Of a stretch of DNA of 64,000 bases, positions 11,486 to 63,815 are shown piece by piece. The stretch's first letter is position 1, and the number at the start of each line of letters is the position of its first letter. The notes below the pieces were generated by a model. That model saw only the letters and a program-made list of their open reading frames with translations, had not been told where the DNA came from and did no database searches. A program made the translations under genes and the position numbers. This DNA comes from Lysobacterales bacterium (lineage in GTDB: Bacteria; Pseudomonadota; Gammaproteobacteria; Xanthomonadales; SZUA-36): contig JANLTO010000017.1 in the NCBI GenBank assembly GCA_031362985.1, positions 15,947-79,946 on the forward strand, written 5' to 3'.

Positions 11486-12781
11486 TCACGCTGCGCGGCG
11501 CCCAATCGCTTCGAGCAGGACGCGGCAGATGCGCACCAGCGGCGGCACCGGATCGGAAAACCAGCCGCGGTTGAGAGGACTGGTCACACGCGGGGTGTGG
11601 CCGAAATATTCCGCCTTGAAGGAGCGCAGCAGCTGTGGAATTGAGTCCTCAGTGAAAGGCTTTGCGACACCTGCGCTGCGTTTGAAACGGGTGCGCAGCC
11701 AGGTCTTGCCCTGGTCCAAAATCTGGCCAAGCAGGTGCAGGGCGTCCCACAAGGGATCCAGCAGCAACACGCCTTCGGGAAACGACGGTATCTCACCCGC
11801 ATCCTTACCCTGCGCGAGGCGCAGGAGGATCAGGGGTTCATTGATACCGAGTTCTGTCCGGTACCAGAGGTTGTGACCAAAGCGCGGGTTGATTTCCATC
11901 AGCTTGGGGATACCATCACGCTGATCAACCAGGGTTTGCACGGTCATACCCCCCCAGACGCCAAGCTGCCGCACCAGTGCGTGTACCTCCGCGGCGTATG
12001 GAACGTCGTTCGTGGTCTCAGCGGCGGCGCTGGGGGTGCGCACTCCAACCCGCCGAACCCGATGAACCCGGGGCGAAAACAAGGACACGATTTCAAACTC
12101 GGGACTGACCAGCAGGTAGTAGTTGCGCTTGGTCAGAGCCGGCACGTATTCCTGCAGCAGGGGCCTGGGCTGGATGGCGCTGAGATCTTCGTATGCCGCT
12201 TCGAGTTCTGCCAGGTCACTCGCCCACCGGATGTTCGCGCCGTGTGCATTACAACGCGGTTTGAGCACCCACGGAGACACCATGCCGGCAGCGGCGGCCA
12301 GCACATCCTCACGGCTTGAAACCACGTGGGTCAATGGCATGGGAAAGCCGACCGTTTCGGCGGCTTGCAGGGTCAGGCTCTTGTCCAGGATGCGTGTCAG
12401 CGCAGCATAAGCAGGCACCACCGTGACAATGCCCTGGCTGGCAAAGCGTGCCTTGTTCTTGGCGAAAACAAAAACCTCCGCGTCGTAGGAGGGAAAGATG
12501 GTGTCAATTTCCTCCATGGCACAGATCTCTTCGATGCGCCTGATATAAGCCTCTTCATGCGCTGTGTTTTCTTCTTCGATACGCCCGGCGCGCCAGTCGG
12601 CGGAGCAATCGGGCACGGTATAGCGCTTGCTGACGTGCCGGGACCAGGCAGAAATGCCTGCCCAACGCTGCAACACATTGCCCTGGTCCACCGTGATCAC
12701 GATCCGGTCAGCCACGTGACGCAAACAGCGCAGGATCAGGTAAGGCTGTTCCTCCCGGGTATTGGTGATCAGCACCTTCAT
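11486..12781 (-). CDS. ATP-grasp domain ligase (carboxylate-amine ligase type)
   Basis: 431 aa. Motifs PWVLKPRCNAHGANIRW, LLQEYVP, MEINPRFGHNLWYRTELGINEPL are typical of the ATP-grasp fold. The start overlaps the deacetylase stop (12778-12781). Confidence 0.8.
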   Translation of the reverse strand: MKVLITNTREEQPYLILRCLRHVADRIVITVDQGNVLQRWAGISAWSRHVSKRYTVPDCSADWRAGRIEEENTAHEEAYIRRIEEICAMEEIDTIFPSYDAEVFVFAKNKARFASQGIVTVVPAYAALTRILDKSLTLQAAETVGFPMPLTHVVSSREDVLAAAAGMVSPWVLKPRCNAHGANIRWASDLAELEAAYEDLSAIQPRPLLQEYVPALTKRNYYLLVSPEFEIVSLFSPRVHRVRRVGVRTPSAAAETTNDVPYAAEVHALVRQLGVWGGMTVQTLVDQRDGIPKLMEINPRFGHNLWYRTELGINEPLILLRLAQGKDAGEIPSFPEGVLLLDPLWDALHLLGQILDQGKTWLRTRFKRSAGVAKPFTEDSIPQLLRSFKAEYFGHTPRVTSPLNRGWFSDPVPPLVRICRVLLEAIGRRAA

Positions 12782-13620
12782 GGTTTACCGGCTCTGTCTG
12801 GTATGAAGCCTGCTTTGCCCGCCACCCGTTTTACATCGCGCAGATACTGACGCCACTGCAGCCAGGCTGTAAGCCCGCCATCGAGCAGCTTGAGGAAGCG
12901 CTGCGGCCGTTGCAGGTAATATGCATCAATGCGAGGAAGTTGCAGCATATCCGGTTGCACGGAACAGTGGCCCAGTCGGGCAGTGCAGGCACGCCGGTAA
13001 TACCGGGCGGCAAGGTCGCATACTGCGGCATCACAGTGCCCGTAAGGGTAGGCCAGTGCATCTGCCCGCGCTTGCAGGCGCTGCTCCAGCAATTCCCGGG
13101 ACTGGACCAGTTCCTGCTCAAGCACATCCGGCGATAAGCGGGTCAGGTCAGGATGGTTGAGTGTGTGGGAGCCAATTTCAAAACCTGCACGCACCCAGGC
13201 CTCAGCCTGCTGCCAGTTGAGCAGGTCGCGGTCGAAGTCCGGGTGTACCGCCCGCGCCTGTGAACCACTCATTCCCATCATCCCGGTGACCAGGAATACG
13301 GTGGCGCTGAAGCCCTGCACCGCCAGCACCGGCAGAGCCTGTTCCAACACGCTGAGATAACCGTCGTCGAAGGTCAGAACAATTGCGTTCGGCGGATAGC
13401 AACCGCTGTGATCGAAATGATCAAAAGCCTGTGCCAGGCTGATGCCGACAATACCGTGAGCTGCGAGCGACTCCATTTGCCAGCGGAACACCTGCGGTGA
13501 AATTGAGATAGTAGATGAACAATGATCAATCGCGTGGTAGGTCAGTACCGGCAAGGTGCCATCACTGTTCACTTGCAGCCTTCTCCAGTTCCCTGTTCCA
13601 CTCGGCCCGCACTTCTTCAT
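12778..13620 (-). CDS. Polysaccharide deacetylase (NodB homology domain)
   Basis: Track ORF 12778..13752. Motifs LPVLTYHAIDH, IVLTFDDGYLSV, ATVFLVTG, IGSHTLNHPDL. The longest ORF overlaps the upstream gene by 190 nt. Plausible starts are ATG 13620 or GTG 13572. Confidence 0.8.
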   Translation of the reverse strand: MKKCGPSGTGNWRRLQVNSDGTLPVLTYHAIDHCSSTISISPQVFRWQMESLAAHGIVGISLAQAFDHFDHSGCYPPNAIVLTFDDGYLSVLEQALPVLAVQGFSATVFLVTGMMGMSGSQARAVHPDFDRDLLNWQQAEAWVRAGFEIGSHTLNHPDLTRLSPDVLEQELVQSRELLEQRLQARADALAYPYGHCDAAVCDLAARYYRRACTARLGHCSVQPDMLQLPRIDAYYLQRPQRFLKLLDGGLTAWLQWRQYLRDVKRVAGKAGFIPDRAGKP

Positions 13621-14710
13621 TGTCCAGTTCCAGCTGGTCGCTGAAGCGCAAACCGATGTTCCTGACCAGAGCTGGCGCATTGATTGCCAGGTGACGAGCA
13701 GGTGTCGAGCCGGTGTTAAGGTGCTGGTGATACCAGTAAGTGGGCGGCACAAAAAGCGTGCCGGCTTTCCAGTCCACCCGCACGCGATCGTGATACGCGC
13801 CCTCGGGCCAGGTCACAGAAAAACCTTCACCTGACAGCAGCAGAATGAATGCATCGCTGGAATGCCGGTGCGCCTTCATGAACATCTTCGGCGGGATCTC
13901 CGAGACATGCAGGCTCAGCATGCTGTTGCCGGCCATCAGCCAGCGCATGGTTTCAGTGCCTTCACCGCGATAGTCGTACGGGTGGGTATCAATACTCTGA
14001 ATGTCCTCGACAAAATTGGCTGAGACCGCCCGGTCGCCGGCACTCTTTGTACGCCGGAAGTAGTCGGGTGCGCCATCGTAACGGTCGGAAAAGACGAAGG
14101 GATTTTCGGTGATAAATTCCTCACTGCGTATGACGTTCAACACAAACGGGAAGCTGGTGACCATCAGCATCCGGGCTGGCTGATCCCCTGTGCTGTAATG
14201 CTGATGGCGAACATTCAGGGGCACTGACAACAGGTCCCCCTGGTTCCACGCGACACGCTGCTCCTGTTCGCCTTCCTGTTGCATGATCGTGTAGCCGCTG
14301 CCACTGATGAAGTAGACACCTGTCTCATAAACGTGGCGCTGACTTGCAGTCATTCCCCGGGTCGGAATTTCGAGTACGCGGCCATCGATGATCTGGTAGT
14401 CGGCAAAGCGCAAGTACAGACCAGTGACGCCTTCGCCCATTTGCGGCCAGGGCCGCAACGCGATGGTGGCAACGTCATCGATCTCCAGCCCTTCAAACAT
14501 GGGCACCTCCAGCCGTGCCTGCTTTAACCAGGTTTCATAAGGCGAATCGGTCGGGGGTTCACGAACCACCGTTGGGCCCAGTACTTCCACGCCTTTCACG
14601 TAGGCGAACAACCCGAAAAACGCCCTGCGGGCAAGGCCGGTGTGCAGCAACAGCACCGCGACCAGCACCAATGCACCAAGAGCAGCAAGAATTTTCAGAC
14701 CTTTGGCCAC
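13562..14710 (-). CDS. Membrane-anchored bicupin protein
   Basis: 382 aa with an N-terminal TM helix (ILAALGALVLVAVLLL). Two cupin barrels. The second carries HxH...H metal-type motifs: KAHRHSSDAFILLLSGEG and YWYHQHLNTG. Confidence 0.7.
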   Translation of the reverse strand: MAKGLKILAALGALVLVAVLLLHTGLARRAFFGLFAYVKGVEVLGPTVVREPPTDSPYETWLKQARLEVPMFEGLEIDDVATIALRPWPQMGEGVTGLYLRFADYQIIDGRVLEIPTRGMTASQRHVYETGVYFISGSGYTIMQQEGEQEQRVAWNQGDLLSVPLNVRHQHYSTGDQPARMLMVTSFPFVLNVIRSEEFITENPFVFSDRYDGAPDYFRRTKSAGDRAVSANFVEDIQSIDTHPYDYRGEGTETMRWLMAGNSMLSLHVSEIPPKMFMKAHRHSSDAFILLLSGEGFSVTWPEGAYHDRVRVDWKAGTLFVPPTYWYHQHLNTGSTPARHLAINAPALVRNIGLRFSDQLELDNEEVRAEWNRELEKAASEQ

Positions 14711-14843
14711 AGATTTCGGCGCCTTCGATTCCGGTTCAGTAGGAATTTGCAGCTATGATATCGGCATTCAGGGTAGCCGGCACATGTGCAATGGAACATG
14801 TTGAGTTTGATACGCTCGCCCGGCATCTGCCGCGAAGTCTGCA

Positions 14844-15680
14844 ATGGTAATTGCCAGGAGCTGCCAGCGGGTCAAACGCCTGACCCCTCGCACCGTGGCG
14901 CATGTGCTTTACGGCAGAATAAAACCGCGCAAAGCGCCGCTGCTGGAGGGTCACTTCACCTCGATTTGGGGAAGATGGGCGCATGTGAACTATTACCACT
15001 GGCTGATCGATTGCCTGCCACTGCTTGCGCGCCTGGACGGAATCGCTGACTCGCCGCCGATCACCTTGCTGATGCCCCAATCCATGCCACCCGCCTGGGA
15101 GGACTCCCTCGCCTGTTGCCTGCCTTCCGGCATGGCTGTTCAACGTGCCACCGGCTGGGTACGGCCGCAGCATTTTCTATTCATCTCCCCGGGTCATCTT
15201 GGTTGGGCAGCATGGCTGACACCTGGTGGGCGGGACTACGTGCGCGGCAAAGTATTCGAACGATTCGGACTCGACGCCAACAGGAAACCGAGCCGGCGCA
15301 TTTTTGTTTCGCGCTCCAGGGCGGCAGTGCGGCGTTTGCTCAACGAGGACGAAGCGGGCCATGTGATGGCTAGATTTGGATTTGAAACCGTCCACCTGGA
15401 AGGACTGAGCTTCGAGCAGCAGGTACGGCTGTTTCACGACGCGGAATTCGTCGCCGGGGTACATGGCGCGGCATTTGCCAACCTGCTGTTCGCGGGCCGT
15501 ACGAAAGTACTGGAACTGTTCGCTTGTGATGCATTCAGGCCATTGTATTTTTTCCTGGCTCGTTCCTTGGGTCTGGATCACGAGATTCTGCTGGGCAGCG
15601 GGGAAAACCGCCTGGAAGATTTCAGCATCGCGGTATCTGACCTGGAAAGAACCGTGGAAAAAATGCTTCTCAAGGACTGA
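14844..15680 (+). CDS. Glycosyltransferase family 61 / DUF563 protein
   Basis: 278 aa. The NYYHWLIDCLPLLARL motif is characteristic of DUF563/GT61. C-terminal GVHGAAFANLLF. The N-terminus looks short for the family, so the start is uncertain. Confidence 0.65.
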   Translation: MVIARSCQRVKRLTPRTVAHVLYGRIKPRKAPLLEGHFTSIWGRWAHVNYYHWLIDCLPLLARLDGIADSPPITLLMPQSMPPAWEDSLACCLPSGMAVQRATGWVRPQHFLFISPGHLGWAAWLTPGGRDYVRGKVFERFGLDANRKPSRRIFVSRSRAAVRRLLNEDEAGHVMARFGFETVHLEGLSFEQQVRLFHDAEFVAGVHGAAFANLLFAGRTKVLELFACDAFRPLYFFLARSLGLDHEILLGSGENRLEDFSIAVSDLERTVEKMLLKD

Positions 15681-15757
15681 AGAACTCAGCGGGAGGGCCG
15701 CCTGGTGCCTGGGAATTTTGGTGACCTTGCAGCGTGTTCGTTGTAAGGTTCTGGCTC

Positions 15758-16984
15758 ATGCGATTCTGCCACGTCACCACTTTTTATCCCCCGCACAATT
15801 TTGGTGGCGATGGCATTCTCGTGCAACAGATCTGTGAGGGACTGGCCTCTCATGGCCACGAAGTCGACGTTGTTCACTGCGTGGACGCCTACAACCTCAA
15901 AGGCGCACCGGTGACGCACGCCGTAACGGATCCCCCGGGCCTTCGCCGCCACAGCCTGCGCAGCAGTTGGGGCTTGCTGTCCCCGCTGATCACACAGCAG
16001 ACCGGCCTGCCCGGACTCAAGCAGCGCACGCTCGAACACATTCTGTCAGCCCGCTACGATGTGGTGCATTTTCACAATATTTCCCTGATCGGGGGCCCGG
16101 GTATATTGCGCCTGAGCCGCGCGCCGGTCACTCTGTATACCACCCACGACCATTGGCTGGTGTGTCCTGCGCATGTGCTGTGGAAGTATCGCACTCGGCC
16201 CTGTGAGCGGCCACAGTGTTTCAGTTGCTCCATCGTCAGCGGCATTCCACCGCAACTGTGGCGTTACACGAACTTATTGCAGCGCTGCCTCGAGCATGTT
16301 GACGCGCTACTCGTTCCCAGCACGTTCGCCGCAGAGAAGCACCGCGAGGCCGGCATCAACCGCCCCATGCATGTGCTTAACTCGTTTTCCCGGCTGGCTG
16401 AGGAGTCTGGCGCCGGTGGTGATGGTGCCAACTATCGATCCGCCAAACCCTTGTTTGTTTATGCGGGCCGTTTGGAGTCATCCAAGGGGGTCGAACAGCT
16501 ACTGGAGGCCTTTCGTCACCGCCCCGGCTACGAATTGTTCATCGCCGGGGACGGTGTGCTGGCAGATCGGCTCAGGTCCGCTTATGCGGATTGCCCGCAT
16601 ATCCGCTTCCTTGGCTCCCTGCAGAAAAGCCAACTCGCTGCGCTGCTGCGCGACGCCGATGCGGTGATCAGCCCGGCCTGGGGTCCCGAAGCGTTTCCCT
16701 TGGTGAACATCGAGGCCATGTCCTGCGGCACGCCCGTCATCGCACGGCGCAGCGGTGGCAGCGCGGAGTCCATAGAGCGGACCGGAGGGGGCTTGATCTA
16801 TAACCAACCGGAAGAGTTGCTACCCCTGGTCGACCGCGTTGCCGGCGACCCCGAATTGCGGCGCAGTCTTGCGCAAAGGGCCACGGAGGGCTACTTGAGG
16901 CACTTTTCAGAAACACGCTGGATGCAGCGCTACGTCGAGATTATCAGTGCCATTGCCGCGACGAAAACAGCTGACCATTCCTGA
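15758..16984 (+). CDS. Glycosyltransferase family 4 (GT-B)
   Basis: Track ORF 15734..16984 (GTG). ATG 15758 gives MRFCHVTTFYPPHNFGGDG, typical of GT4. C-terminal E-x7-E region: PAWGPEAFPLVNIEAMSCGTPVIA. Confidence 0.85.
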   Translation: MRFCHVTTFYPPHNFGGDGILVQQICEGLASHGHEVDVVHCVDAYNLKGAPVTHAVTDPPGLRRHSLRSSWGLLSPLITQQTGLPGLKQRTLEHILSARYDVVHFHNISLIGGPGILRLSRAPVTLYTTHDHWLVCPAHVLWKYRTRPCERPQCFSCSIVSGIPPQLWRYTNLLQRCLEHVDALLVPSTFAAEKHREAGINRPMHVLNSFSRLAEESGAGGDGANYRSAKPLFVYAGRLESSKGVEQLLEAFRHRPGYELFIAGDGVLADRLRSAYADCPHIRFLGSLQKSQLAALLRDADAVISPAWGPEAFPLVNIEAMSCGTPVIARRSGGSAESIERTGGGLIYNQPEELLPLVDRVAGDPELRRSLAQRATEGYLRHFSETRWMQRYVEIISAIAATKTADHS

Positions 16985-17517: not shown

Positions 17518-17570
17518 CTTCATTTTCAATGATTTACAATCATCGAAAATGGCGGCACATCCCTGTACCG

Positions 17571-23519: not shown

Positions 23520-24293
23520 TCAGGGGTGGTGCTGGTACTGCTCCAGCACTTCCCTGGTGGGCCCGTCATACTGGATATGTCCATGGCTCATGACGATGGT
23601 ACGTGGGCACAATTCACGTAGCGTTTCCAGATTGTGGCTGACGAAAATGACGGTGCGACCCTCGGCGGACATTTCCTTGATTCGTTGCAGGCATTTGCCG
23701 CGAAAATTGACGTCCCCCACCGCAATGACTTCGTCGAACAACATGATGTTTGCGTCCAGATGGGCGGCAACGGAGAAAGCCAGGCGCACATACATGCCGC
23801 TGGAATAACGCTTTACCGGGGTATCGAGCATGCCTTCTACCTCGGCGAATGCCACGATGTTGTCAAACTTGGCGCGAATCTCGTGTAGCTCCATGCCCAG
23901 GGTGGCGCCCACCAGAAACAGGTTTTCCCGCCCGGTGAACTCGGGATGAAAACCCGCCCCGACCTCCAGCATGGAGCCCACTTTGCCCTGGATCAGCGCA
24001 TAGCCTTCCGTGGGCCAGGTGATGCGCGAAAGTATCTTGAGCAGGACCGACTTGCCCGCGCCGTTGTGTCCGATGAGGCCAACGATCTCGCCGTGACGAA
24101 TTTTCAGGTCGACGTTGCGCAGTGCCCACAACACTTGCGCTGCATTACTATCCTGCTGCGGGCCGTGCTTCAGCTTGGCGATGGTGCGGCGCACGGCATT
24201 TTCATATACCTGGTGCAAACCCCGGGACAGGCCGCGCGTGCCCAGCACAAAGCGTTTGCCGAGCTGACTGACTTCAATTGCGTATTCACCCAT
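23520..24293 (-). CDS. Polysaccharide/O-antigen ABC exporter ATP-binding protein (Wzt/TagH-like, short form)
   Basis: 257 aa. Walker A GHNGAGKS, signature YSSGM, Walker B IMLFDE. It has no C-terminal carbohydrate-binding extension. Confidence 0.85.
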   Translation of the reverse strand: MGEYAIEVSQLGKRFVLGTRGLSRGLHQVYENAVRRTIAKLKHGPQQDSNAAQVLWALRNVDLKIRHGEIVGLIGHNGAGKSVLLKILSRITWPTEGYALIQGKVGSMLEVGAGFHPEFTGRENLFLVGATLGMELHEIRAKFDNIVAFAEVEGMLDTPVKRYSSGMYVRLAFSVAAHLDANIMLFDEVIAVGDVNFRGKCLQRIKEMSAEGRTVIFVSHNLETLRELCPRTIVMSHGHIQYDGPTREVLEQYQHHP

Positions 24294-24296
24294 GAT

Positions 24297-25136
24297 TTAA
24301 ACCACGTCCGAAAACGTGATTTCTTCGCGCCGGAACCAGTACAGGCCGGACACCAGAATGGTCATGGCAACGCCCCCTGACACGAGCAACATGCGCAGGG
24401 GCAGCTCTGTTTCACCCGTCAGCGCCCAGCGAAATCCTTCCACCACGGCGGCCATCGGATTGAGTTCGTACAGCAGTCGCCAGGCTTCCGGGACGACGGT
24501 GATCGGGTAAGCCACCGGGGTGGCAAAAAGCCATAGTTGCGTGATGAATGGCATGGCGTGGTTCACGTCGCGAAACCGGACATTGATGGCGGCCAGCCAC
24601 AGACCTACACCCAAGGCAGTCAAAGCCGCCAGCAGCACCAACAAGGGCAGCGCGAGAATTTGTGGCCCGGGGATGATGCCGTAGTAGAACATCAATGGAA
24701 TGAGCACCACCATGGAGGTTAACAGGTCGACCAAACCACCCAGGACTGCAGCCAGCGGCAGTAATAAGCGTGGAAAGTACGCTTTTGAAATTACCGACTG
24801 TTGCCCCACCACGCTGGTACTCGCTACGGTCAGGGCGTGCACGAAATAGGTCCACGGAACCAGGGCGCAGAACGCAAACACCGGATAGGGAACATCGCCC
24901 GAGGATACGTTCAGCCAGCGCCCAAAAAATACACTGAACACCACCATGGAAACCACTGGCTGGACAATGACCCAGGTGACACCGGCCAGGGTTTGCTTGT
25001 ACCGGGCCTTCACATCCCGCCACACAAAAATGGCCAGCAGGCGGCGGTACTCGTATACCTCCTGCAGGTTCAACGGCATCCAGCCCGCATGCGGCTCAAT
25101 GCGCCTCGTGGGCAGCTTATTGGTGTCGAACTTCAT
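24297..25136 (-). CDS. ABC-2 type polysaccharide exporter permease (Wzm-like)
   Basis: Track ORF to 25169. ATG 25136 forms an ATGA overlap with the upstream GT stop. Six hydrophobic helices, ABC-2 pattern. Confidence 0.85.
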   Translation of the reverse strand: MKFDTNKLPTRRIEPHAGWMPLNLQEVYEYRRLLAIFVWRDVKARYKQTLAGVTWVIVQPVVSMVVFSVFFGRWLNVSSGDVPYPVFAFCALVPWTYFVHALTVASTSVVGQQSVISKAYFPRLLLPLAAVLGGLVDLLTSMVVLIPLMFYYGIIPGPQILALPLLVLLAALTALGVGLWLAAINVRFRDVNHAMPFITQLWLFATPVAYPITVVPEAWRLLYELNPMAAVVEGFRWALTGETELPLRMLLVSGGVAMTILVSGLYWFRREEITFSDVV

Positions 25137-25843
25137 GCCTTTGGATGCCTGATCAACGCCCGCAACCACCGGCTCAGGGCCAGCCGGTTTACCAGCCGAA
25201 GGCCCAAAGCGTGGCGGGCGGACTGGGTCTTGTCAAGCAACCACTGCCAGGCATAGTGGCGGCGCGAGTCGTAGTGGTAGAGGACCGTGTCAAGCAGCAC
25301 CTCCTGGCGCAAGGCCCCGTCCCGGCTCATACGCAGAGCCCAATCCATGTCTTCTGCATAGTCCACGTCCGCAAAGCGGTAATGTCGGGCAATTTCACTG
25401 CGAATCGGGGTGATGTGGCAGGGCGGCCGGACGTATTCCCCCCGGCACTCATACCAGTCGGTGTACCTGATGGAGTGCACCAGCTTTCGCGGGTGGCGTC
25501 CGCAAAAAGTAATTTCGCCTGCATGGGAAATACAATCGGCCGCAGGGTTTTCGCGAATCGCAGCAAGGATGATCCGAACATAGTCAGGGCTGACGCGGTC
25601 ATCATCATCAACGAATACCAGGAACCGTCCGCGGGCCCTGTCCATGAGCTGGTTGCGTTTTGCTCCCAGTGCCTCGATACCATCGTCACTCAGGGCGCGA
25701 ATCTCGACGGCTGCCCCGGCTCCGGGCGCTGCGCTCTGGCGCGCCAGTTCCTCACGCAAACGCGTATACAACGGCAGCCGGGATTCCATCGTAGCGATGA
25801 GAATGCTCAGTACGCATTCGCCGTTCGCCGGCTGGGTATTCAT
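25133..25843 (-). CDS. GT-A fold glycosyltransferase (GT2-like, small)
   Basis: 236 aa. LSILIATMESR and the acidic FLVFVDDDDRVSPDY (DxD) motif. Coupled to its neighbours by ATGA overlaps. Confidence 0.65.
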   Translation of the reverse strand: MNTQPANGECVLSILIATMESRLPLYTRLREELARQSAAPGAGAAVEIRALSDDGIEALGAKRNQLMDRARGRFLVFVDDDDRVSPDYVRIILAAIRENPAADCISHAGEITFCGRHPRKLVHSIRYTDWYECRGEYVRPPCHITPIRSEIARHYRFADVDYAEDMDWALRMSRDGALRQEVLLDTVLYHYDSRRHYAWQWLLDKTQSARHALGLRLVNRLALSRWLRALIRHPKA

Positions 25844-27057
25844 ACCCCATGCCCCGGCCCATACTCCTTCGAGCGCTCCCGCACAAACTCCTGCACGATG
25901 CTGCGTAGCTGCCGCATGAACTGTTCCTCGGTGAAGTCCAGCATGCGCGCTGCCAGCACTTGCCGCAGTCGTGACTGCAACTCGTCGCTTTCAAGCGCAC
26001 AGCAAATGCGCTCGACCGCCTGATCGTCGGAACCATACATCAGCCCGGGCTCATTTCCGATGATTTCAACCTGCCCGCCGTTACCCGGCACGAAGACCAG
26101 GCAACCGGCGCGGACCAATTCTGCCACGGCAATACCGAAATGCTCATCCAGCATGGTATGCAAGCCGTAACGGCAGGCCCCCACCCGTTGTTCAAGTTCA
26201 TTGCGGCTGATGCCATGGTGCAATCGCACCCAGGGCCCTGCTGCCTGTGCGCGTTCACGCAGCAGGTATGCGTACGCCGGGTCCTGGATATCGCCGATAA
26301 TTTCCAGGCGGACGTCAAGGCCGCGCCGGCGCACTCGTTCAATAATGTCTATAGCTTCAAGCTGTCGTTTCCCCGGCTCAATGCGGCCCAGCGAGACAAA
26401 GGAGTGTTTGCGCTGTTCCCAGGCAACGGGGGGCGCTGACCAGCCCACCGGTGGGTGCAACACCTGGGCTTGTACGCCGTAAATGCTTCCCACGAGACTG
26501 GCAGTCCAATGCGAATTCACCAGCGTCAGGTTGCGCACTATACGCTCGAAGGAAATTCCCGATGAAAGCATCCATGGCCGGTACTGTCCCCTAAAAAATG
26601 CGCCCAGGCGCCCGGCGGGCGATAGGCGACGCACGGCATCGACCCGTTCCCGGTGCCTGGCCAAGTATGGATAATGCACATACTGGATACCCGGTCGGCC
26701 AAAATCCATTTCATTGTCAACCGCCATCGTGACGTCGAATTCTCCGCCCGTCTGGCGCGCTTTGCGCATCAGCCACGCAGCACGCTGAAAGCTGTGCTGG
26801 TCTGGATCAATGCGGTGGCTGTGCCGCACCAGCCAGGGTATTTGTACAAAGCGGAAGTCGCGTTCCTCCAGGCTGGTGCCAAAGTGCCGGTTCAATGCCG
26901 CAAAGTTCGGTCGCCGGGCACACAGTACGGTTACGTCCCAATCCTGCCGCAGGCCCTGTAGTGCCCATGCGCCGACACATTGCCCCCCACCCGGCGGATT
27001 CAGATTGACCGAACAAAAAAGCAACTTACCCCTGGTGCCGGGGCCGACTGCGGTCAC
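25840..27057 (-). CDS. Glycosyltransferase family 4 (GT-B)
   Basis: 405 aa. C-terminal EHFGIAVAELVRAGCLVFV (E-x7-E region). Overlaps both neighbours by 4 nt. Confidence 0.8.
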   Translation of the reverse strand: MTAVGPGTRGKLLFCSVNLNPPGGGQCVGAWALQGLRQDWDVTVLCARRPNFAALNRHFGTSLEERDFRFVQIPWLVRHSHRIDPDQHSFQRAAWLMRKARQTGGEFDVTMAVDNEMDFGRPGIQYVHYPYLARHRERVDAVRRLSPAGRLGAFFRGQYRPWMLSSGISFERIVRNLTLVNSHWTASLVGSIYGVQAQVLHPPVGWSAPPVAWEQRKHSFVSLGRIEPGKRQLEAIDIIERVRRRGLDVRLEIIGDIQDPAYAYLLRERAQAAGPWVRLHHGISRNELEQRVGACRYGLHTMLDEHFGIAVAELVRAGCLVFVPGNGGQVEIIGNEPGLMYGSDDQAVERICCALESDELQSRLRQVLAARMLDFTEEQFMRQLRSIVQEFVRERSKEYGPGHGV

Positions 27058-29351
27058 TGTGTTCTTCCCGGGCCGGCAGGGTATTTCCCCAATAATCTGT
27101 CTTTAAGAAAGCTGAGTACGCCAAGCGCAAGGCCTACGGCGCTATAGCAGTACTGCAGCCAGATCATCGGGACGGCACGAAGCGCAAACCAGGCACCCCG
27201 CGATCGCCACAGGAATGTAAGAAACTGAGCATTGAGTAGCACGAGCACCAGCAGCAGTCCCGCTTCTGCGGCCACCACGGAATCATGCAGCAGCGGCGCA
27301 AGGAACATCAGGCCGACCGTCACCATACTCGTGATGTTGTTGGTGCGCAGATTAAGATCGCGGTGAAATATCCGGCGTTGCAGCATGATTTTCGTCCAGG
27401 GAATTGCGCGCTGGAACACATCTGCGCGCACCAGGCTGGCCAGGGTGTAACGTTTGGTGTGGGTTAGCTGGATTGCAGAGCTTAGTAAAATGCGGTGCCC
27501 CGCCTGGTGCAGGCGATAGCCCAGCTCGACGTCTTCCATTGCCCGGTAGCGCTCGTCGAATCCGCCCGCCTGGGTGAAAACTTCCCGCCTGATGGCGCCA
27601 TAGCCGCCGCAGAAGGTTGCAGCTTCCCGTCCCGAAACCTGGTGGGTATAGTGGTGCAACAGGTTTTTATACTGGGATGCAAAGTTCTGCGCCGGCGTGT
27701 CGTCCTGGTAGGAACAAAAGGTGGCTGCCACATCAGGCTGCTGCGTAAACACATGCATGATCCGGTCCAGTGTATCGGGCTCAATGAGCACATCGGCGTC
27801 GAGAAAAAACAACAGTTCCGCCTGCGCCAGTTGCACGCCACGGTTGCGCGCCGTGGCCGCACCACGATTTCGATCGAGCCGCACAAAGCGGCCACAGCGC
27901 TCCCGCGCGATTTGGTCGCTGCCATCAGTGGAGTGGTCATCAACGACTATAAGTTCGTAATCGGTCAGATGCGAGCGCTGCAGTGCGTCCAGGCATTGGC
28001 CCAGGGATCCGATCGCGTTGTACACGGGGATGATGACCGACACACGCGGCAGCGCAGATACTGCAGTGCCGGGTTCACGCAATTCCGGCTCAGCGCCAGC
28101 CGGGACTATGCGGCCGTAGGCATCCAGCAAGCCTTGCACCACCAGGTTCCAGTCATAGCTGCTTGCCACGGTTTGCCGCGCGGTATTTACCATGCTGCGC
28201 CAGCTTTCCCGGTTGTCCAGTAAATGCAGGATCTGCCGGGCAAAATCTCCAGGCTCATCGGCAATGAACAGGTCCTTACCCTCTTTCAGTACCAGGCCCT
28301 CGCAGCCCACGCGGCTTGACACCACCGGTCGGCCCAGCGCCATGGCTTCAAGTATTTTCAGGCGCGAGCCGCCGCCACTGCGCAGCGGTGCAATGGCCAC
28401 GTGTGCGCGCTGGTAAAAGGGTGTGAGGTCATCCACCCGGTCGGTGATTTCCACCTGCCCAGGTTGTGCCAGGTGCGCAAGAAATTTCTGCCCGCCCGAG
28501 CCAATTATGGTCAGGCGGCAGCGAGGGCGTTGACGCTGCACCAGCGGCAGTACGTCGCGGCAAAATGTCTGCATGGCATCGCGGTTGGGCAGGTAACCCA
28601 TGGTACCGACGAATACCAGTTCGCCACCGCTTGTAGCATCACTGGCCGCAGCATCTGACCAGGGTTCGGGCAGGGGCAAGAGCTGCGTGCAGTCCACTCC
28701 GTTCTGGACAATGCTGATTCGCCCCGCCAATGGTTTTGCTGCATTGACGTCAAGGTTCCGGGCAAGGTTTTCCAGCCGGGCGCGGTCCTGTGCGGATACC
28801 ACGATCGAAAGGTCAAACTGTCGTGCAACCCGCGCCTCCCAACCCCGCAACGACAGCCATTTCAGCGCGGCAGGCACTCGCCCCGCACCCGAACTCATGT
28901 CCAGCATGCTGCGGTACTGCTGCGCCCCGATGTTGTGCAATGACAGCACGCAAGCCCCACGAAAGCCGGGCGCCAGATCCGCGCGATATGGCGCCAGGAA
29001 AGAGTGCTCGATTTGCACAATATCAAAGGCCTGCTCCGCCGTAAGCTGCCTGATGCGTCGGGCCAGTGCGGGGTAATAAAAAGGCGTGGTTGCACAAGGC
29101 CGACCAGCTGGCAGGCCGCGCACTGCCATGCCTAATGTTGCCAGCCAGCTTCGATCAGCAACAACGCCATCGACATGCCGGCAATACGCCCGCATCGACT
29201 GCATGTGTTCTTTCTCTGCGGGAAATTCCAGCAGAGAGAGGACTGACACCTCGTGCTGCTGCGCCACGCGCGATATCAGGTTGAAATCCCGGATTCTCGC
29301 GCCACTGCATGGTGGGACCGGCAGACCGTAGGTAATGAACAGGATTTTCAC
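27054..29351 (-). CDS. Bifunctional GT4 (N-terminal) - GT2 with multi-TM tail (C-terminal) glycosyltransferase
   Basis: 765 aa. N-terminal half: MKILFITYGLPVPPCSGARIRDFNL...GGGSRLKILEAMALGRPVV. C-terminal half: VSVIIPVYNA...LIVVDDHSTDG...FLDADV...GYGAIRREV...EDVELGYRL, followed by hydrophobic helices. The C-terminal half aligns along its whole length with residues ~25-400 of ORF 5016..8234. Confidence 0.85.
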   Translation of the reverse strand: MKILFITYGLPVPPCSGARIRDFNLISRVAQQHEVSVLSLLEFPAEKEHMQSMRAYCRHVDGVVADRSWLATLGMAVRGLPAGRPCATTPFYYPALARRIRQLTAEQAFDIVQIEHSFLAPYRADLAPGFRGACVLSLHNIGAQQYRSMLDMSSGAGRVPAALKWLSLRGWEARVARQFDLSIVVSAQDRARLENLARNLDVNAAKPLAGRISIVQNGVDCTQLLPLPEPWSDAAASDATSGGELVFVGTMGYLPNRDAMQTFCRDVLPLVQRQRPRCRLTIIGSGGQKFLAHLAQPGQVEITDRVDDLTPFYQRAHVAIAPLRSGGGSRLKILEAMALGRPVVSSRVGCEGLVLKEGKDLFIADEPGDFARQILHLLDNRESWRSMVNTARQTVASSYDWNLVVQGLLDAYGRIVPAGAEPELREPGTAVSALPRVSVIIPVYNAIGSLGQCLDALQRSHLTDYELIVVDDHSTDGSDQIARERCGRFVRLDRNRGAATARNRGVQLAQAELLFFLDADVLIEPDTLDRIMHVFTQQPDVAATFCSYQDDTPAQNFASQYKNLLHHYTHQVSGREAATFCGGYGAIRREVFTQAGGFDERYRAMEDVELGYRLHQAGHRILLSSAIQLTHTKRYTLASLVRADVFQRAIPWTKIMLQRRIFHRDLNLRTNNITSMVTVGLMFLAPLLHDSVVAAEAGLLLVLVLLNAQFLTFLWRSRGAWFALRAVPMIWLQYCYSAVGLALGVLSFLKDRLLGKYPAGPGRTQ

Positions 29352-29393
29352 TGGAAAGCAGAGACTGACGCGGCTGGATGCGGGTCCTTGCGT

Positions 29394-30200
29394 TCAGGCA
29401 TCACGATGGAGGACCTCAAAATTTGGCATTCCGTGGCAGCGGTAACCCATCTCATGCGCCATGATGCCAAGGCCTTCGGTTTCGATCTCTCCGCGATAGT
29501 CACCACGCCAGGCGCGCAGGAAATCGAAACGGGAGTGGCACTGGTTATCCTGTCGCACACGGGCAATCGGGCGGCCGAGAAAAAAAGTGGGGAAAATCAA
29601 GCCCTCGCGATGGATGTCAGCGCGCACCAGCAGCACCGTGCCACCCACCGTGTCGAGCTCCACCAGGTCACCTTCCTGGCGCATGCCATCCATGTGCAGC
29701 CTGCCATGATCGCGCCAGGCATTGCAGTCGAACGTGGGCCCACCATATTCCTTCACGCAGTGTGGCTGAACTATGTCCTTGCCGGTTGCGAGCACGCGCT
29801 GAATCAGGTCTGGCGGGTATTCAATGATGTCGACGTCGAGCCACAACACCCAATCATGTTCCTGTAAGGCGTTAAACAACAGGAAATTTCGACTCTTGGC
29901 CAGCACGCAGCGACGGTTTTTCTGTATGCTTCGGTCCCAGCGCTTCTTGCCCGTTGGAAGCTGGAAGTCAAAATCCCTTTTCCATATACGCGCAGAGGCA
30001 AAATGGCCGGCACACGCATGCAATTCAGCCTGAAATTTTTCAAACGTGCCGTCGGTGCTGTCACTTTCCAGCAATCCCACGGACAAGAGCTCGCGCGGGT
30101 AGTCCAGGCTGCGCAAACCCGCAAAATAGCTCTTCAGGCACGTGCTGGCGTTTTTTACCGGGGTGAGGATAAGAATTTTCGCTTGAGCAACCATTGGCAA
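29394..30200 (-). CDS. GT-A glycosyltransferase resembling the fungal Anp1/Mnn9/Van1 (GT62) mannosyltransferase family
   Basis: 268 aa. ILILTPVKNASTCLKSYFAGLRSLDYPRELLSVGLLESDSTDGT and WVLWLDVDIIEYPPDLI recall the Anp1 family signature. This is from memory and not searched. Confidence 0.5.
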   Translation of the reverse strand: MPMVAQAKILILTPVKNASTCLKSYFAGLRSLDYPRELLSVGLLESDSTDGTFEKFQAELHACAGHFASARIWKRDFDFQLPTGKKRWDRSIQKNRRCVLAKSRNFLLFNALQEHDWVLWLDVDIIEYPPDLIQRVLATGKDIVQPHCVKEYGGPTFDCNAWRDHGRLHMDGMRQEGDLVELDTVGGTVLLVRADIHREGLIFPTFFLGRPIARVRQDNQCHSRFDFLRAWRGDYRGEIETEGLGIMAHEMGYRCHGMPNFEVLHRDA

Positions 30201-30370
30201 GGTCGGATGTGCCGGCCTGTCTCCACTTGATGAGGCATGCGTTCATGATACTCAAGTCAAAAATCCATTGCGAGAAAGCGCTTCCGGCAATCAGCGCGAC
30301 CGGTACTTGCACGCCGGATCATTTAACGTAATGCTCAAGCCCATGATGGCTGGTACGAGGAGGGCGCCGG

Positions 30371-31873
30371 GTGCCTGACCTGTCACAGAAGCAACCGAGG
30401 GTGATTTGCATTGGCGCGGGTCCAGCCGGACTGACCGCAGCCTATCGCCTGACTGCGGCCAGGGCAAATGTCACAGTGCTGGAGCGCGACCCGGTGCATG
30501 TGGGCGGAATATCCCGCACGGAGAAGTACAAAGGATTCCGCTTCGACGTCGGTGGACACCGGTTTTTTTCCCGCTCTAAGGAAATTGAGGCGCTGTGGGA
30601 CGAGATCCTCGGCGACCAGCTGATCAACCGTCCGCGCAAATCACGCATTTTCTACAAGGGCAAGCTGTTCGACTATCCCCTGCGCGCCCTGGACGCCTTG
30701 ACCAAGCTGGGCTTTTTTGAATCCGCCTGGTGTATGGTTTCTTATTTCAAAGCGCGGCTGGTTCCCATGCGCAATCCGCAAACTTTCGAAGACTGGGTCA
30801 CCAACCAGTTCGGGCGACGTTTATTCAGCATTTTTTTTGAGTCGTATACCGAAAAAGTCTGGGGTATGAAATGCAAGGAAATCTCCGCAGATTGGGCGGC
30901 ACAGAGAATCAAGGGCCTGTCTCTGGGAGGCGCAGTGAAAAACGCACTGATTCCTTCCTGGCTACAGCGCGCAAGTAAAAAGCCCAAAACCCTGGTCGAG
31001 CAATTTCGCTACCCGCGACTTGGCCCAGGCCAAATGTGGGAGGCCTGTGCAGAAAAAGTGAGCCAGAGGGGTGGGGAAGTGTTGCTGGGAATGGAAGTAC
31101 ACCGCCTGGTGCGCAATCCCGTGAGTGGCGAATGGACCGTTTTCGCCTTGGACCCGGAGGGCGGACGGCACGAATTTCACGCCGATCACGTCATTTCGTC
31201 CGCAGCGATTTCGGATCTGGCGGAATACCTCGAACCCCGCTTGCCTGAGCCGGTGCTCGCGGCCGCCCGGGCCTTGCACTACCGCGACTTTATTACCGTG
31301 GCGCTGATCGTCAAAGACGTGGATTGCTTCGACGACAACTGGATCTACATTCACGATTCAATGGTTAAAGTAGGCCGCATTCAGAACTTCAAGTCGTGGT
31401 CTCCCCACCTGGTGCCGGATCCGGACCTGAACTGCCTGGGCCTGGAGTATTTCTGCTTCAAGGGAGACGGCCTGTGGGATGCGAAGGATGAAGACCTGGT
31501 GCGGCTGGCGGATGAAGAGCTGATCCAGTTGGGACTGGTGACCCCGGGACATGTCATGGATGGCACGGTGATTCGCCAACCCAAGGCCTACCCGGTGTAC
31601 GACGATAGCTATGAAGAGCGGGTTGCGCTTTTTCGCAGTTGGTTGGATAAGCACATGCCGGAATTGCACCTTGTCGGACGCAACGGCATGCACAAGTACA
31701 ACAACCAGGACCACGCCATGATGACCGCATTGCTCACAGCGGAAAATATCCTCGCCGGACAGAAACTCTGGGATGTCTGGCGGGTAAACCAGGACGCCGA
31801 ATACCACGAGATGGGAGAGGACCGGACGCTGGCATTCAGTGAGCGGCGGGTGCCTCGCTCAATTTCCGATTGA
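30371..31873 (+). CDS. NAD(P)/FAD-dependent oxidoreductase (amine-oxidase / UDP-galactopyranose-mutase-like fold)
   Basis: 500 aa, GTG start. Dinucleotide-binding VICIGAGPAGLTAAYRL...VLERDPVHVGGISRT...FRFDVGGHRFF. Confidence 0.8.
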   Translation: MPDLSQKQPRVICIGAGPAGLTAAYRLTAARANVTVLERDPVHVGGISRTEKYKGFRFDVGGHRFFSRSKEIEALWDEILGDQLINRPRKSRIFYKGKLFDYPLRALDALTKLGFFESAWCMVSYFKARLVPMRNPQTFEDWVTNQFGRRLFSIFFESYTEKVWGMKCKEISADWAAQRIKGLSLGGAVKNALIPSWLQRASKKPKTLVEQFRYPRLGPGQMWEACAEKVSQRGGEVLLGMEVHRLVRNPVSGEWTVFALDPEGGRHEFHADHVISSAAISDLAEYLEPRLPEPVLAAARALHYRDFITVALIVKDVDCFDDNWIYIHDSMVKVGRIQNFKSWSPHLVPDPDLNCLGLEYFCFKGDGLWDAKDEDLVRLADEELIQLGLVTPGHVMDGTVIRQPKAYPVYDDSYEERVALFRSWLDKHMPELHLVGRNGMHKYNNQDHAMMTALLTAENILAGQKLWDVWRVNQDAEYHEMGEDRTLAFSERRVPRSISD

Positions 31874-33707
31874 GCGCTTCCAACTCCTCGCGCGACTCGG
31901 CATGCTGCGGTTGCAACTCCAGGGCTTCCATTAGCAATGTCCGGGCGGCGAGCAGGCTGCTGCGTTCCGTGGGATGCATCTGGATCAGAGCCACTGCCTC
32001 GAAGTACTTTCTGAGAAAGGTTTTTGCTTCCCCCTTGATGGCCAGCCCCACTTGCTCCTCGGCTTCAATTCTGCGGCCGAGGTGAAGGTACATCATGGCT
32101 AGGTTAAAGTGCGCGAAGGATGTCGCGAGCGGTCTGCGCCCGACAGACAGAAAGGCCCGCTCGGCATCCTTGTAGCGGCCAACCTGTCCATAAGCCGATC
32201 CGCAGTGAGTGCCCAGGTCATTCAAAGAACCATCGCGTTGCAGATGTGCATCACACAACTCCACGGCGCGGGCGTTATTTTTTTCCCGCAGTTGGGCGGC
32301 CAGCAGGGTGTTAAGAATAGGGCTTTTATTGCGCAACTTTTGGTAATCGGTTTCAAACAACAGAATGTCGCTGGCCCAATCGGCGTTGCGCGACCAGGTC
32401 AGTGGCATCAGGACAGCGCAGATGATCAGGGTGGCGATCACGGCGGCATTCAGGCTGAACTTCCGTGCAAACAGCCAGAGACCAAATGCCAGCATGATGG
32501 CAAAACCGACCGATGGCAGATAAAGAATGCGGTCCGCCAGGCCCGGGTAGCTGCCCGATTCGCCCATTAAGCCGCTCGACGGCAGAATTGCAATGTAGAA
32601 AAAAGCCAGGCCGATCAGGAATAAAGGCCGCTTGCGCACATACGCCACAACTGCGCCAACCAGCACGGCCAGTTGGGCTGCAAGCGCCAACCGGGTGTTT
32701 ATTCCCGGGGCATCGTAATAAATCTGCAGCGGGTGCGGCCACAATTGAATCTTTAATCCTTCGAACCACATACCAATCGCCGGCTGCACCCGAGCCGGGT
32801 TGAAGCCCAAGCCGTGCTGCAAAGACGAGAAAACCTGGCCCGCTGCACCGGGGGGCTGTAACCCGGGCTCCGCGCCGGAACCTTGCACCACTGCGGTTGC
32901 CAGGGCATGCGAACGCAGGACCAGGTAAATGCCCAACGGCAGTAGCAGGCTGAGCACCGGAGCGCAGGCCCGCAGCCGTTGCTGCCAGGAATCGGAGCGG
33001 GTCAACCACAATACGGCTACTGCCAGCAGGGGGAGCGCAGCGCTGCTTTCACGGCAAAACAGCACCAGCACATAGACCATGTTTAGTCCCAACCACGCTT
33101 TTCCCGGTTGCTTTTGCCGGCAATCGAGGAACCACTTCAAGCCACCAACCACCCCTATGGTGACAAGGATTTCGGACCCGTTAAAAACCGAATTCACCAC
33201 TTCGGCATGGATGGGGTGAACGCCAAACAGCAAGGCTACCAGAAGCGCCAACGCCCTGGATTCGCTCCGCTCATGTCCGCAAAGCTCCAACAACTGCCTG
33301 AGGAAACCATAAACAAGCAGGGTTGCAAGCACGTGCAAGACAATGTTAACGAGGTGATATCCTGCCATCCATTCGCCAAACAACTGTGACTCCGCAGCGA
33401 TGAAGAGCAGCAGCAGTGGACGATAGAGTTTGGAATCGGTGCCACTGGCAGCCCAGAGATCTTCGCTAAAAAAGCGCAGCACGTCAGCTATGCTCAATCC
33501 GGAGAATCGGCTGCTGTCTACAAAAACCCGGTCATCGAAGGTGATGTTGTCGGGCCAGGCATTGGCATAGGCAAGCAGGGTGAACAGCACGAGCACCAGG
33601 CAGGCGATGCCATTACTCACCCCTGCCCGGTTGATGGGCCGCAGGCCAGGAGTAGTAATTTTATTGGGAGATGAGCGCTGTGCGCGGGGGTGCTTTCGTT
33701 GGGCCAT
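31836..33707 (-). CDS. GT-C fold membrane glycosyltransferase with C-terminal TPR repeats (PMT/TMTC-like)
   Basis: 623 aa. Multiple TM helices and a first-loop acidic motif NITFDDRVFVD. YRPLLLLF...GYHLVNIVLHVLATLLVY recalls TMTC/PMT_2 proteins. The last ~170 aa are TPR-like. Confidence 0.65.
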   Translation of the reverse strand: MAQRKHPRAQRSSPNKITTPGLRPINRAGVSNGIACLVLVLFTLLAYANAWPDNITFDDRVFVDSSRFSGLSIADVLRFFSEDLWAASGTDSKLYRPLLLLFIAAESQLFGEWMAGYHLVNIVLHVLATLLVYGFLRQLLELCGHERSESRALALLVALLFGVHPIHAEVVNSVFNGSEILVTIGVVGGLKWFLDCRQKQPGKAWLGLNMVYVLVLFCRESSAALPLLAVAVLWLTRSDSWQQRLRACAPVLSLLLPLGIYLVLRSHALATAVVQGSGAEPGLQPPGAAGQVFSSLQHGLGFNPARVQPAIGMWFEGLKIQLWPHPLQIYYDAPGINTRLALAAQLAVLVGAVVAYVRKRPLFLIGLAFFYIAILPSSGLMGESGSYPGLADRILYLPSVGFAIMLAFGLWLFARKFSLNAAVIATLIICAVLMPLTWSRNADWASDILLFETDYQKLRNKSPILNTLLAAQLREKNNARAVELCDAHLQRDGSLNDLGTHCGSAYGQVGRYKDAERAFLSVGRRPLATSFAHFNLAMMYLHLGRRIEAEEQVGLAIKGEAKTFLRKYFEAVALIQMHPTERSSLLAARTLLMEALELQPQHAESREELEALNRKLSEAPAAH

Positions 33708-63731: not shown

Positions 63732-63815
63732 CCGGTCATCCTGGTTCAATTGGGTTTGGCTCTATTGCTAGTGCGGGCCAGGTTCATGGTTCTTGCCACT
63801 CAGGTCTGCCTGTGG

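Follow-up and report, generated by a model that had tools for sequence, protein, structure and literature searches.

A Wzm/Wzt glycan operon adjoining genes for a mutase-like flavoprotein and a GT-C/TPR membrane protein in a Lysobacterales genome

We examined a 64,000 nt window from a Lysobacterales bacterium (GCA_031362985.1, contig JANLTO010000017.1, positions 15,947-79,946 of the forward strand; genome 95.8 % complete in 179 contigs), with attention to six minus-strand genes encoding four glycosyltransferases (GTs) and the Wzm/Wzt pair of an ATP-binding cassette (ABC) transporter. Family labels were taken from Pfam and NCBIfam profile scans, and fold relatives from solved structures in the PDB. 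All six open reading frames (ORFs), running from 30200 down to 23520, were present where a first-pass annotation had placed them, and its gene labels (GT62-like, GT4-GT2 fusion, GT4, small GT-A, Wzm and Wzt) agreed with the Pfam and NCBIfam families (Table 1). Junction sequences confirmed the 3 nt gap it described at 24293/24297 and two of its three ATGA overlaps (25840/25843 and 25133/25136); the third, at 27054/27057, is GTGA and reflects a GTG start. The GT62 and fusion genes are separated by 42 nt. The four GT genes lie directly upstream of the exporter genes, with 4 nt overlaps, and from this layout the cytoplasmic GTs are predicted to be co-transcribed with the exporter. The operon constitutes the larger part of an eight-gene block of ~10.2 kb (23520-33707), completed by genes for a flavoprotein and a GT-C/TPR membrane protein. 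Operon and flavoprotein gene diverge from a common intergenic region, in which consensus promoter and terminator counts were no higher than in shuffled sequence and an Rfam search returned only a sub-threshold match.

Table 1. Coordinates within the window and principal matches of the eight-gene block
Feature	Position	Strand	Evidence
Wzt, ABC-2 glycan exporter ATPase, short form	23520-24293	-	PF00005 (ABC_tran), 73 bits; 257 aa
Wzm, ABC-2 permease	24297-25169	-	PF01061 (ABC2_membrane), 75 bits; ~6 hydrophobic segments
Small soluble GT-A (divergent GT2-like), 236 aa	25133-25843	-	Partial PF00535 and PF13632; FVDDDD motif; no transmembrane segment
GT4 glycosyltransferase, 405 aa, GTG start	25840-27057	-	PF00534, 49 bits; E-x7-E motif EHFGIAVAE
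GT4-GT2 fusion	27054-29351	-	GT4, residues ~1-415; membrane-anchored GT2, residues ~430-765; Pfam matches to both
GT62 (Anp1/Mnn9/Van1-like), soluble, first operon gene	29394-30200	-	PF03452, 177.6 bits, E=4e-52, cut-off 28.8
Intergenic region, divergent	30201-30370		170 bp between operon and flavoprotein gene, common to both
UDP-galactopyranose-mutase-like FAD protein	30371-31873	+	NCBIfam NF005545 (PRK07208 group), 755 bits; model named "hypothetical protein"
Putative GT-C-fold membrane glycosyltransferase with C-terminal TPR domain, 623 aa	31836-33707	-	~10-11 hydrophobic segments; convergent with flavoprotein gene

The exporter genes bear out the earlier view of the locus as an ABC-transporter-type glycan operon. 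In addition to the PF01061 and PF00005 matches, the closest solved structures are those of Aquifex aeolicus Wzm (6M96_B, E=4e-14) and Wzt (6AN5/6OIH, E=4e-53 across residues 53-253), which belong to a structurally solved O-antigen transporter. Wzm probably begins at the ATG at 25136, where its start and the upstream stop share an ATGA. The top NCBIfam model for Wzt was galactan-export Wzt/RfbE, with a score under its cut-off. Wzt was also confirmed as the short form, as its 257 aa stop at the end of the nucleotide-binding domain and a search for Wzt_C (PF14524) gave no match. Features of the Escherichia coli O9a type were likewise absent, with no Wzt_C in Wzt and no methyltransferase or kinase gene in the block. 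The combination of a short Wzt and no terminator is familiar from the Klebsiella O2a sub-type, and such transporters function without one. Export and termination coupled to a carbohydrate-binding module have been covered elsewhere (PMC11127046; for further background see PMC11231755).

The first operon gene encodes a bacterial GT62 protein related to the fungal Golgi mannan polymerase proteins Mnn9, Anp1 and Van1. It scores 177.6 bits to the Anp1 family and matches yeast Mnn9 (3ZF8) with E=2e-24, placing its WLDVDII sequence on the DxD-type metal-site motif of Mnn9 and retaining the C-terminal His. In contrast to the fungal enzymes it is soluble, with neither transmembrane or hydrophobic segments nor a type II membrane anchor found, and it is bacterial and operonic with an ABC exporter. 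Its start may be the ATG at 30194 instead of the TTG at 30200. The nearest relatives of the gene occur in metagenome-assembled genomes (MAGs) labelled Wenzhouxiangellaceae or Lysobacterales (83-86 % identity), and within the order it was present in 4 of 201 genomes and absent from G083, a genome of the same genus. This patchy distribution is the pattern of variable surface-glycan loci. There are at least 1,771 relatives of similar length, mostly unnamed, the top-scoring ones being from bacterial MAGs and metagenomes. Elsewhere the GT62 domain forms the C-terminal module of multi-GT proteins of 800-1980 aa (L007-L011: cyanobacteria, a deltaproteobacterium and Azospirillum picis; L numbers denote loci outside the source genome). 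These carry an N-terminal IHQTWKN-type domain, which we take to resemble GT32/Och1, and a GT2, to which the Azospirillum protein adds TPR and GT4 modules. Other GT62 homologues adjoin GT4 pairs, a Mannosyl_trans3, a GT10 or a PMT_2 gene. A Binataceae MAG (L035, 6231-15504) combines a GT62 homologue with Mannosyl_trans3, GT2-TPR, GT10, GT4 and methyltransferase genes, such that two "fungal" mannosyltransferase families (GT62 and the Mnn1-type Mannosyl_trans3) are adjacent in one bacterium. A search of plasmids for the GT62 domain found only generically annotated Azospirillum and Gemmobacter glycosyltransferases and no characterised cluster. The GT62 likeness, together with a bifunctional ManC/GMP_PMI for GDP-mannose synthesis elsewhere in the genome (561 bits), suggests that the operon glycan probably contains mannose.

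Homologues of the remaining operon GTs were traced in several contexts. Two tandem homologues of the GT4 protein (39 % identity) adjoin the GT62 homologue of an Abditibacteriota genome, and the small GT-A protein is 78-79 % identical in L004 and L031. The N-terminal half of the GT4-GT2 fusion resembles TIGR03087, a PEP-CTERM/XrtA-associated exopolysaccharide GT model (227 bits, under cut-off), whilst hydrophobic segments lie towards the C-terminus of the protein (676-760). Among PDB matches of the GT2 half, ArnC and an archaeal dolichol-phosphate-mannose synthase appear at E ~1e-7. Over residues ~435-680 the GT2 domain is 41-47 % identical to the products of free-standing GT2 genes of ~400 aa that adjoin the flavoprotein gene in other genomes and comprise a GT-A domain followed by four to five C-terminal transmembrane segments. 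A paralogue of the operon GT2 (40 % identity over 255 aa, E=4e-53) was observed elsewhere in the window as part of a GT2-TonB-receptor fusion (5016-8234, plus strand); this part is closer still to the flavoprotein-associated free-standing GT2 of other genomes.

The flavoprotein casts doubt on one earlier claim, namely that the window holds no sugar-nucleotide gene, since this gene adjoins the operon and its product is like UDP-galactopyranose mutase (UGM) in sequence, fold and residues. Among solved structures it is most closely related to the ~500 aa UGMs of Aspergillus fumigatus and Trypanosoma cruzi, which score 71 bits when the sequence is searched by itself and 90 bits when a family profile is used. 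An AlphaFold2 (AF2) model (pLDDT 71, pTM 0.74) gave eukaryotic UGMs as the top 28 Foldseek matches, at TM scores of 0.72-0.74 (e.g. 3UKA, 3UKH and 4DSG). HMMER alignment placed a GGH loop and equivalents of R182, W315/Y317/R327 and R447/Y453/N457 in the protein, and these are invariant in 29 homologues. The aligned residues include the Arg, Tyr and Trp positions that bind UDP-galactopyranose; the roles given to these residues at the substrate and flavin sites follow those in UGM and the mutant entries among the fold matches. The protein shares its length of ~500 aa with the eukaryotic enzymes but differs from them in its low identity (~20 %), in failing the curated UGM models and in belonging to a genome that also has a normal bacterial Glf. 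By sequence, modelled fold and active-site residues it looks like a candidate sugar-nucleotide pyranose/furanose mutase of the eukaryotic UGM type. Literature searches covering bacterial GT62, PRK07208 and the combination of UGM, GT-C and polyprenyl components brought up no description of a system of this kind.

The 3' end of the GT-C/TPR gene overlaps the flavoprotein gene by 38 nt. The first loop of its product carries the motif NITFDDRVF (FDD at residues 57-59), in which D58 and D59 are conserved without exception across 42 homologues. An AF2 model (pLDDT 87) returned Pmt4, PglB, ArnT and Pmt1/2 together with TPR proteins as top PDB matches. The protein itself gave no PMT_2 match at E<=0.001, whilst some of its homologues match PMT_2 (PF13231). 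A TMTC-like label was considered and rejected, as neither a TMTC nor a DUF1736 model matched, and we therefore refer to the protein only as GT-C/TPR. A paralogue (36 % identity) was noted at the edge of contig C35 of the source genome (68-1834; contigs of this genome are given as C numbers).

Comparison with other genomes revealed that the GT-C/TPR gene, the flavoprotein gene and the six operon genes recur as a block in L004 and L031, with different flanks. In L005 the GT-C/TPR gene is syntenic with the operon and the gltB flank is the same as in the window. L031, a related metagenome contig, carries an extra GT10 (fucosyltransferase-family) gene after wzt (2179-3051) in an otherwise identical operon, flanked by a gamma-glutamyltranspeptidase gene and an MmeI-type restriction enzyme gene. 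Beyond these relatives, the flavoprotein gene adjoins a GT2 gene of the type found in the fusion (41-47 % identity) in L020, L021/L027, L026, L028, L029 and L030, a GT-C gene (TPR type, GT87 or PMT_2) in L020, L021, L025, L026 and L030, and Wzm/Wzt genes in L020, L026, L028, L030 and L032. GT2 and GT-C/TPR are even present in one protein of 973 aa in L020. Polytopic ORFs beside the flavoprotein gene in L028 and L029 were also considered as GT-C candidates and discarded, being COX15, COX1 and major facilitator superfamily proteins. That the fusion gene contains the habitual GT2 partner of the flavoprotein argues that the eight genes function together, and we consider it reasonably likely that the operon and the flavoprotein/GT-C pair are functionally linked.

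The first-pass annotation had pointed to several functions missing from the operon. With regard to the window, and the flavoprotein gene aside, it was correct, since Pfam scans that extended to its other large ORFs found no WecA/WbaP-type initiator, no Wzy_C ligase candidate and no Poly_export outer-membrane exporter. A genome-wide search, however, located such functions on other contigs or beyond the window. Two PF00953 genes are present, one of which is MraY (436 bits). The second (C69:39264-40379) scores best against the NCBIfam WecA model (95.7 bits, under the cut-off of 326), comes after rpsA and a LapB-like gene, and adjoins a WbpM-like Polysacc_synt_2 gene and galU, a layout we take to be the Pseudomonas wbpL-wbpM arrangement. 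Together with a WcaJ-type initiator on C108 (473 bits against a cut-off of 411), this makes polyprenyl-phosphate initiating enzymes available in the genome. A canonical glf (C108:3357-7463 region; PF03275, 267 bits) lies ~2 kb from the WcaJ-type gene, and the two presumably mark a separate Wzx/Wzy-type galactofuranose polysaccharide cluster. A Poly_export gene (Wza homologue) occurs on C51 together with a Wzy_C gene. Among the three Wzy_C genes of the genome, another (C102:120278-121537) is on the same contig as the window, ~40 kb past it, between lipid A acyltransferase, Kdo-transferase and GT4 genes of a waaA/lpxL core cluster; from this setting its product may be WaaL-like, and ligation of the operon glycan to lipid A-core is a prediction only. 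GtrA-family genes are confined to C169 and C73.

As a rule, wecA and waaL are not part of ABC-dependent O-polysaccharide clusters, and an O-polysaccharide requires no Wza-type outer-membrane exporter because lipopolysaccharide (LPS) leaves through the Lpt system. Given this usual layout and the initiation, precursor and ligase genes found elsewhere, the gap in the operon is ordinary, and its standing as a notable absence is not upheld. The annotation had also envisaged that the locus might align with a characterised O-antigen or capsule cluster whose missing genes were simply located elsewhere; the genes were largely found elsewhere, whilst no such alignment was obtained. Its caution regarding product and destination is supported.

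In sum, an ABC-dependent, lipid-linked glycan with its absent parts encoded elsewhere is a reading we hold with considerable confidence. The fuller proposal, that the six genes form an ABC-transporter-dependent lipid-linked surface-glycan operon tied to a GT-C periplasmic step, is favoured with less assurance, and LPS O-polysaccharide as the final product is a tentative assignment, at somewhat less than an even chance. Under the fuller proposal, a polyprenyl-phosphate primer would be supplied by an unlinked WecA/WbpL-type enzyme and the chain would be extended in the cytoplasm by the soluble GT4, GT-A and GT62 proteins, with GT62 adding alpha-mannose from GDP-mannose. Wzm and the domain-less Wzt would then export the chain uncapped, in the manner of the Klebsiella O2a type. 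In the periplasm the WaaL-like protein of the core cluster would attach the chain to lipid A-core, the GT-C/TPR enzyme would act on it, or both. The flavoprotein, the membrane GT2 domain and the GT-C/TPR protein would most likely form a "three-component-like" periplasmic glycosylation arm, in which the mutase-like enzyme would produce a furanose sugar nucleotide, GT2 would load the sugar onto polyprenyl phosphate and GT-C would carry out transfer outside the cytoplasm.

Characterised systems supply partial counterparts for both halves of this proposal. The Klebsiella pneumoniae O2a (D-galactan I) locus, comprising wzm, wzt, glf and wbbMNO, directs an ABC-transporter-dependent O-polysaccharide. 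It shares with the present locus a Wzm and a Wzt without a carbohydrate-binding domain, the lack of a chain-terminator gene, cytoplasmic GTs adjoining the exporter, a pyranose/furanose-mutase-type gene in the locus, and WecA and WaaL encoded elsewhere. In contrast, the GTs have no detectable orthology, with GT62, the GT4-GT2 fusion, GT4 and GT-A in place of WbbM, WbbN and WbbO, and the mutase-like protein is of the ~500 aa eukaryotic type that fails TIGR00031, not a canonical Glf. For the periplasmic half, ABC-dependent O-polysaccharides are known in combination with three-component GT-C modification, as in Klebsiella gmlABC and the pentofuranose of Citrobacter youngae O1/O2 (PMC11127046). Along with GtrABC, these systems resemble the present block in a Wzm/Wzt main chain, a possible polyprenyl-phosphate-charging membrane enzyme and a candidate extracytoplasmic GT-C, and the sugar in them is a furanose. 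They differ in that their donor is made by a phosphoribosyl pyrophosphate (PRPP)-dependent phosphoribosyltransferase or GtrB, whereas here this role would fall to a UGM-like flavoprotein and a GT4-fused GT2 with four to five C-terminal transmembrane segments; the block also lacks a GtrA-type flippase, and its GT-C bears a TPR domain. Wzm/Wzt could conceivably substitute for the GtrA flippase.

The closest characterised architecture to the 623 aa protein is that of TfpW, a GT-C/TPR enzyme that adds D-arabinofuranose to the group IV pilin of Pseudomonas aeruginosa (bioRxiv 10.1101/2020.04.19.049825). The two correspond in architecture in their length (623 versus 646 aa), cytoplasmic N-terminus, ~11 transmembrane segments, loop-1 DD-type motif (essential in TfpW), C-terminal TPR and association with furanose chemistry. 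Unlike TfpW, the protein described here has no adjoining pilin gene and no DprE1/E2-type D-arabinofuranose genes, and is linked to a Wzm/Wzt operon.

A number of observations weigh against the fuller proposal. The flavoprotein failed the curated UGM models, scoring 42.9 bits to TIGR00031 against a cut-off of 303.75 and giving no match to Pfam GLF, and protoporphyrinogen oxidases followed close behind UGMs among its fold matches. The canonical Glf on C108 led us to reject the flavoprotein as "the" UGM of the pathway, and indicates that it may act on a different sugar nucleotide. For the GT2 domain the top solved structure was chondroitin synthase and not one of the polyprenyl-phosphate transferases, and the GT-C assignment rests on weak Foldseek matches (E 8e-4 to 9e-3, TM score 0.35-0.48) plus the loop motif. 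No GtrA-type flippase is present in the eight-gene block, and neither an experiment nor a characterised orthologous cluster was found for the locus. The flavoprotein is also much more conserved and widespread than the operon, and the same-genus genome G083 carries it with a PMT_2 GT-C in the absence of this operon, so that the two could adjoin here by chance, within a glycan island of variable content. Finally, the genome contains two more Wzm/Wzt pairs. One (C144:73657-77529) includes a 393 aa Wzt whose tail weakly resembles Wzt_C (21.6 bits, under cut-off); it is followed by GT2 and class I methyltransferase genes and could be a terminator-type candidate for the main O-antigen. The other, on a 2.6 kb contig (C101:2-1299), is 47-50 % identical to the pair in the window and, with the GT-C/TPR paralogue on C35, may represent a second similar locus split by the assembly. 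Because of these pairs the window system cannot be named the main O-antigen maker, and its candidacy as the sole O-antigen exporter of the genome was rejected.

Two alternatives retain some weight, each well short of the favoured reading. The operon might be an ordinary ABC-dependent LPS O-antigen cluster, with the flavoprotein and GT-C/TPR genes a separate adjacent system. Its Wzm/Wzt architecture, the WecA-like and WaaL-like genes elsewhere, a GT content that, in the manner of O-antigen loci, differs from one close relative to the next (only 4 of 201 genomes of the order have GT62, and G083 does not) and the occurrence of the flavoprotein without this operon all fit such a cluster. We nevertheless consider it unlikely, given that the eight genes have been kept together in three lineages despite different flanks, that the operon's GT2 domain belongs to the constant companion family of the flavoprotein, and that C144 carries another system with Wzm, a long Wzt and a methyltransferase. 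Protein O-glycosylation, in which Wzm/Wzt would export a lipid-linked glycan and GT-C/TPR would transfer it to periplasmic or surface proteins in a TfpW- or PMT/TMTC-like manner, has a similarly low probability. Neither within the block nor next to it is there a gene for a likely acceptor such as a pilin, S-layer protein or adhesin, which counts against it, as does the variation of neighbouring genes among genomes; TPR-bearing GT-C enzymes could equally bind glycans, and the likeness to TfpW is one of architecture. It draws nonetheless on that architecture (cytoplasmic N-terminus, ~11 transmembrane segments, loop-1 DD motif and periplasmic TPR), on Pmt4, PglB and Pmt1/2 as best fold matches, on one GT-C/TPR homologue annotated as a protein O-mannosyltransferase in one source, and on conservation of the block as a unit.

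The remaining alternatives are weaker. One is that Wzm/Wzt exports a capsule or a secreted exopolysaccharide, which then crosses the outer membrane through the Wza-type protein of C51. The Poly_export gene and the closeness of the fusion's GT4 half to the PEP-CTERM/XrtA exopolysaccharide model (227 bits, under cut-off) speak for it; it is nevertheless improbable, as the C51 gene sits with Wzy_C, typical Wzx/Wzy company, and neither block nor window showed any KpsE/KpsD, KpsS/KpsC or Kdo-linker gene. Least probable of all is a non-polyprenyl glycolipid, made by a flavoprotein acting as desaturase or oxidase on a terpenoid or lipid and by a CrtQ- or HpnI-like GT2 and moved by the ABC-2 pump, for despite weak NCBIfam matches of the flavoprotein to HpnE and CrtI (38-42 bits) and of the GT2 half to HpnI, HpnB and GT21, and protoporphyrinogen oxidases and phytoene desaturase among the fold matches, UGMs lead by a wide margin in sequence score (71-90 versus ~20 bits), UGM-specific substrate-binding residues are conserved, no terpenoid synthesis genes lie nearby, and GT-C and Wzm/Wzt point to polyprenyl-linked sugars.

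Other features of the window included five intergenic palindromes of 35-40 nt resembling repetitive extragenic palindromic (REP) elements (GGAAAC.CTGAATAAATCAGAGTTTCC; at 17564, 19408, 33853, 35226 and 49851), one of them 146 nt upstream of the GT-C/TPR gene. As they do not bracket the glycan block, they were not taken as mobile-element ends. A separate sugar-modification module (11486-16984) comprises ATP-grasp, polysaccharide deacetylase and bicupin genes opposite GT61 and GT4 genes, with Pfam families confirmed. Genes for sulfate activation, encoding a CysN/APS-kinase fusion and a CysD-like PAPS_reduct-family protein, are present on the minus strand at 60898-63749.

There is nothing unusual about the locus as a Wzm/Wzt operon whose initiation, ligation and precursor functions are encoded at other sites. 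More notable is the placement of a soluble bacterial member of the "fungal" GT62 mannosyltransferase family in a predicted ABC-export context. The PRK07208 flavoprotein family is in turn very widespread and unstudied, and is tied to fixed partners, namely a membrane GT2, a GT-C and often Wzm/Wzt. If the trio adds a furanose in the periplasm, it would enlarge the group of three-component pentofuranose systems described of late and would give a function to thousands of proteins presently annotated as "hypothetical oxidoreductase" and "TPR protein". The block might further be one instance of a widespread bacterial envelope-glycosylation pathway, in which the flavoenzyme would make a furanose sugar nucleotide other than the UDP-galactofuranose that the canonical Glf provides, with polyprenyl loading by GT2 and TfpW/PMT-like periplasmic transfer onto a GT62 mannan-like chain exported by Wzm/Wzt or onto proteins, a broader suggestion that we regard as speculative and rather doubtful. 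Were it true, it would represent either a three-component system for hexofuranose coupled to ABC export or a new route of protein O-glycosylation.

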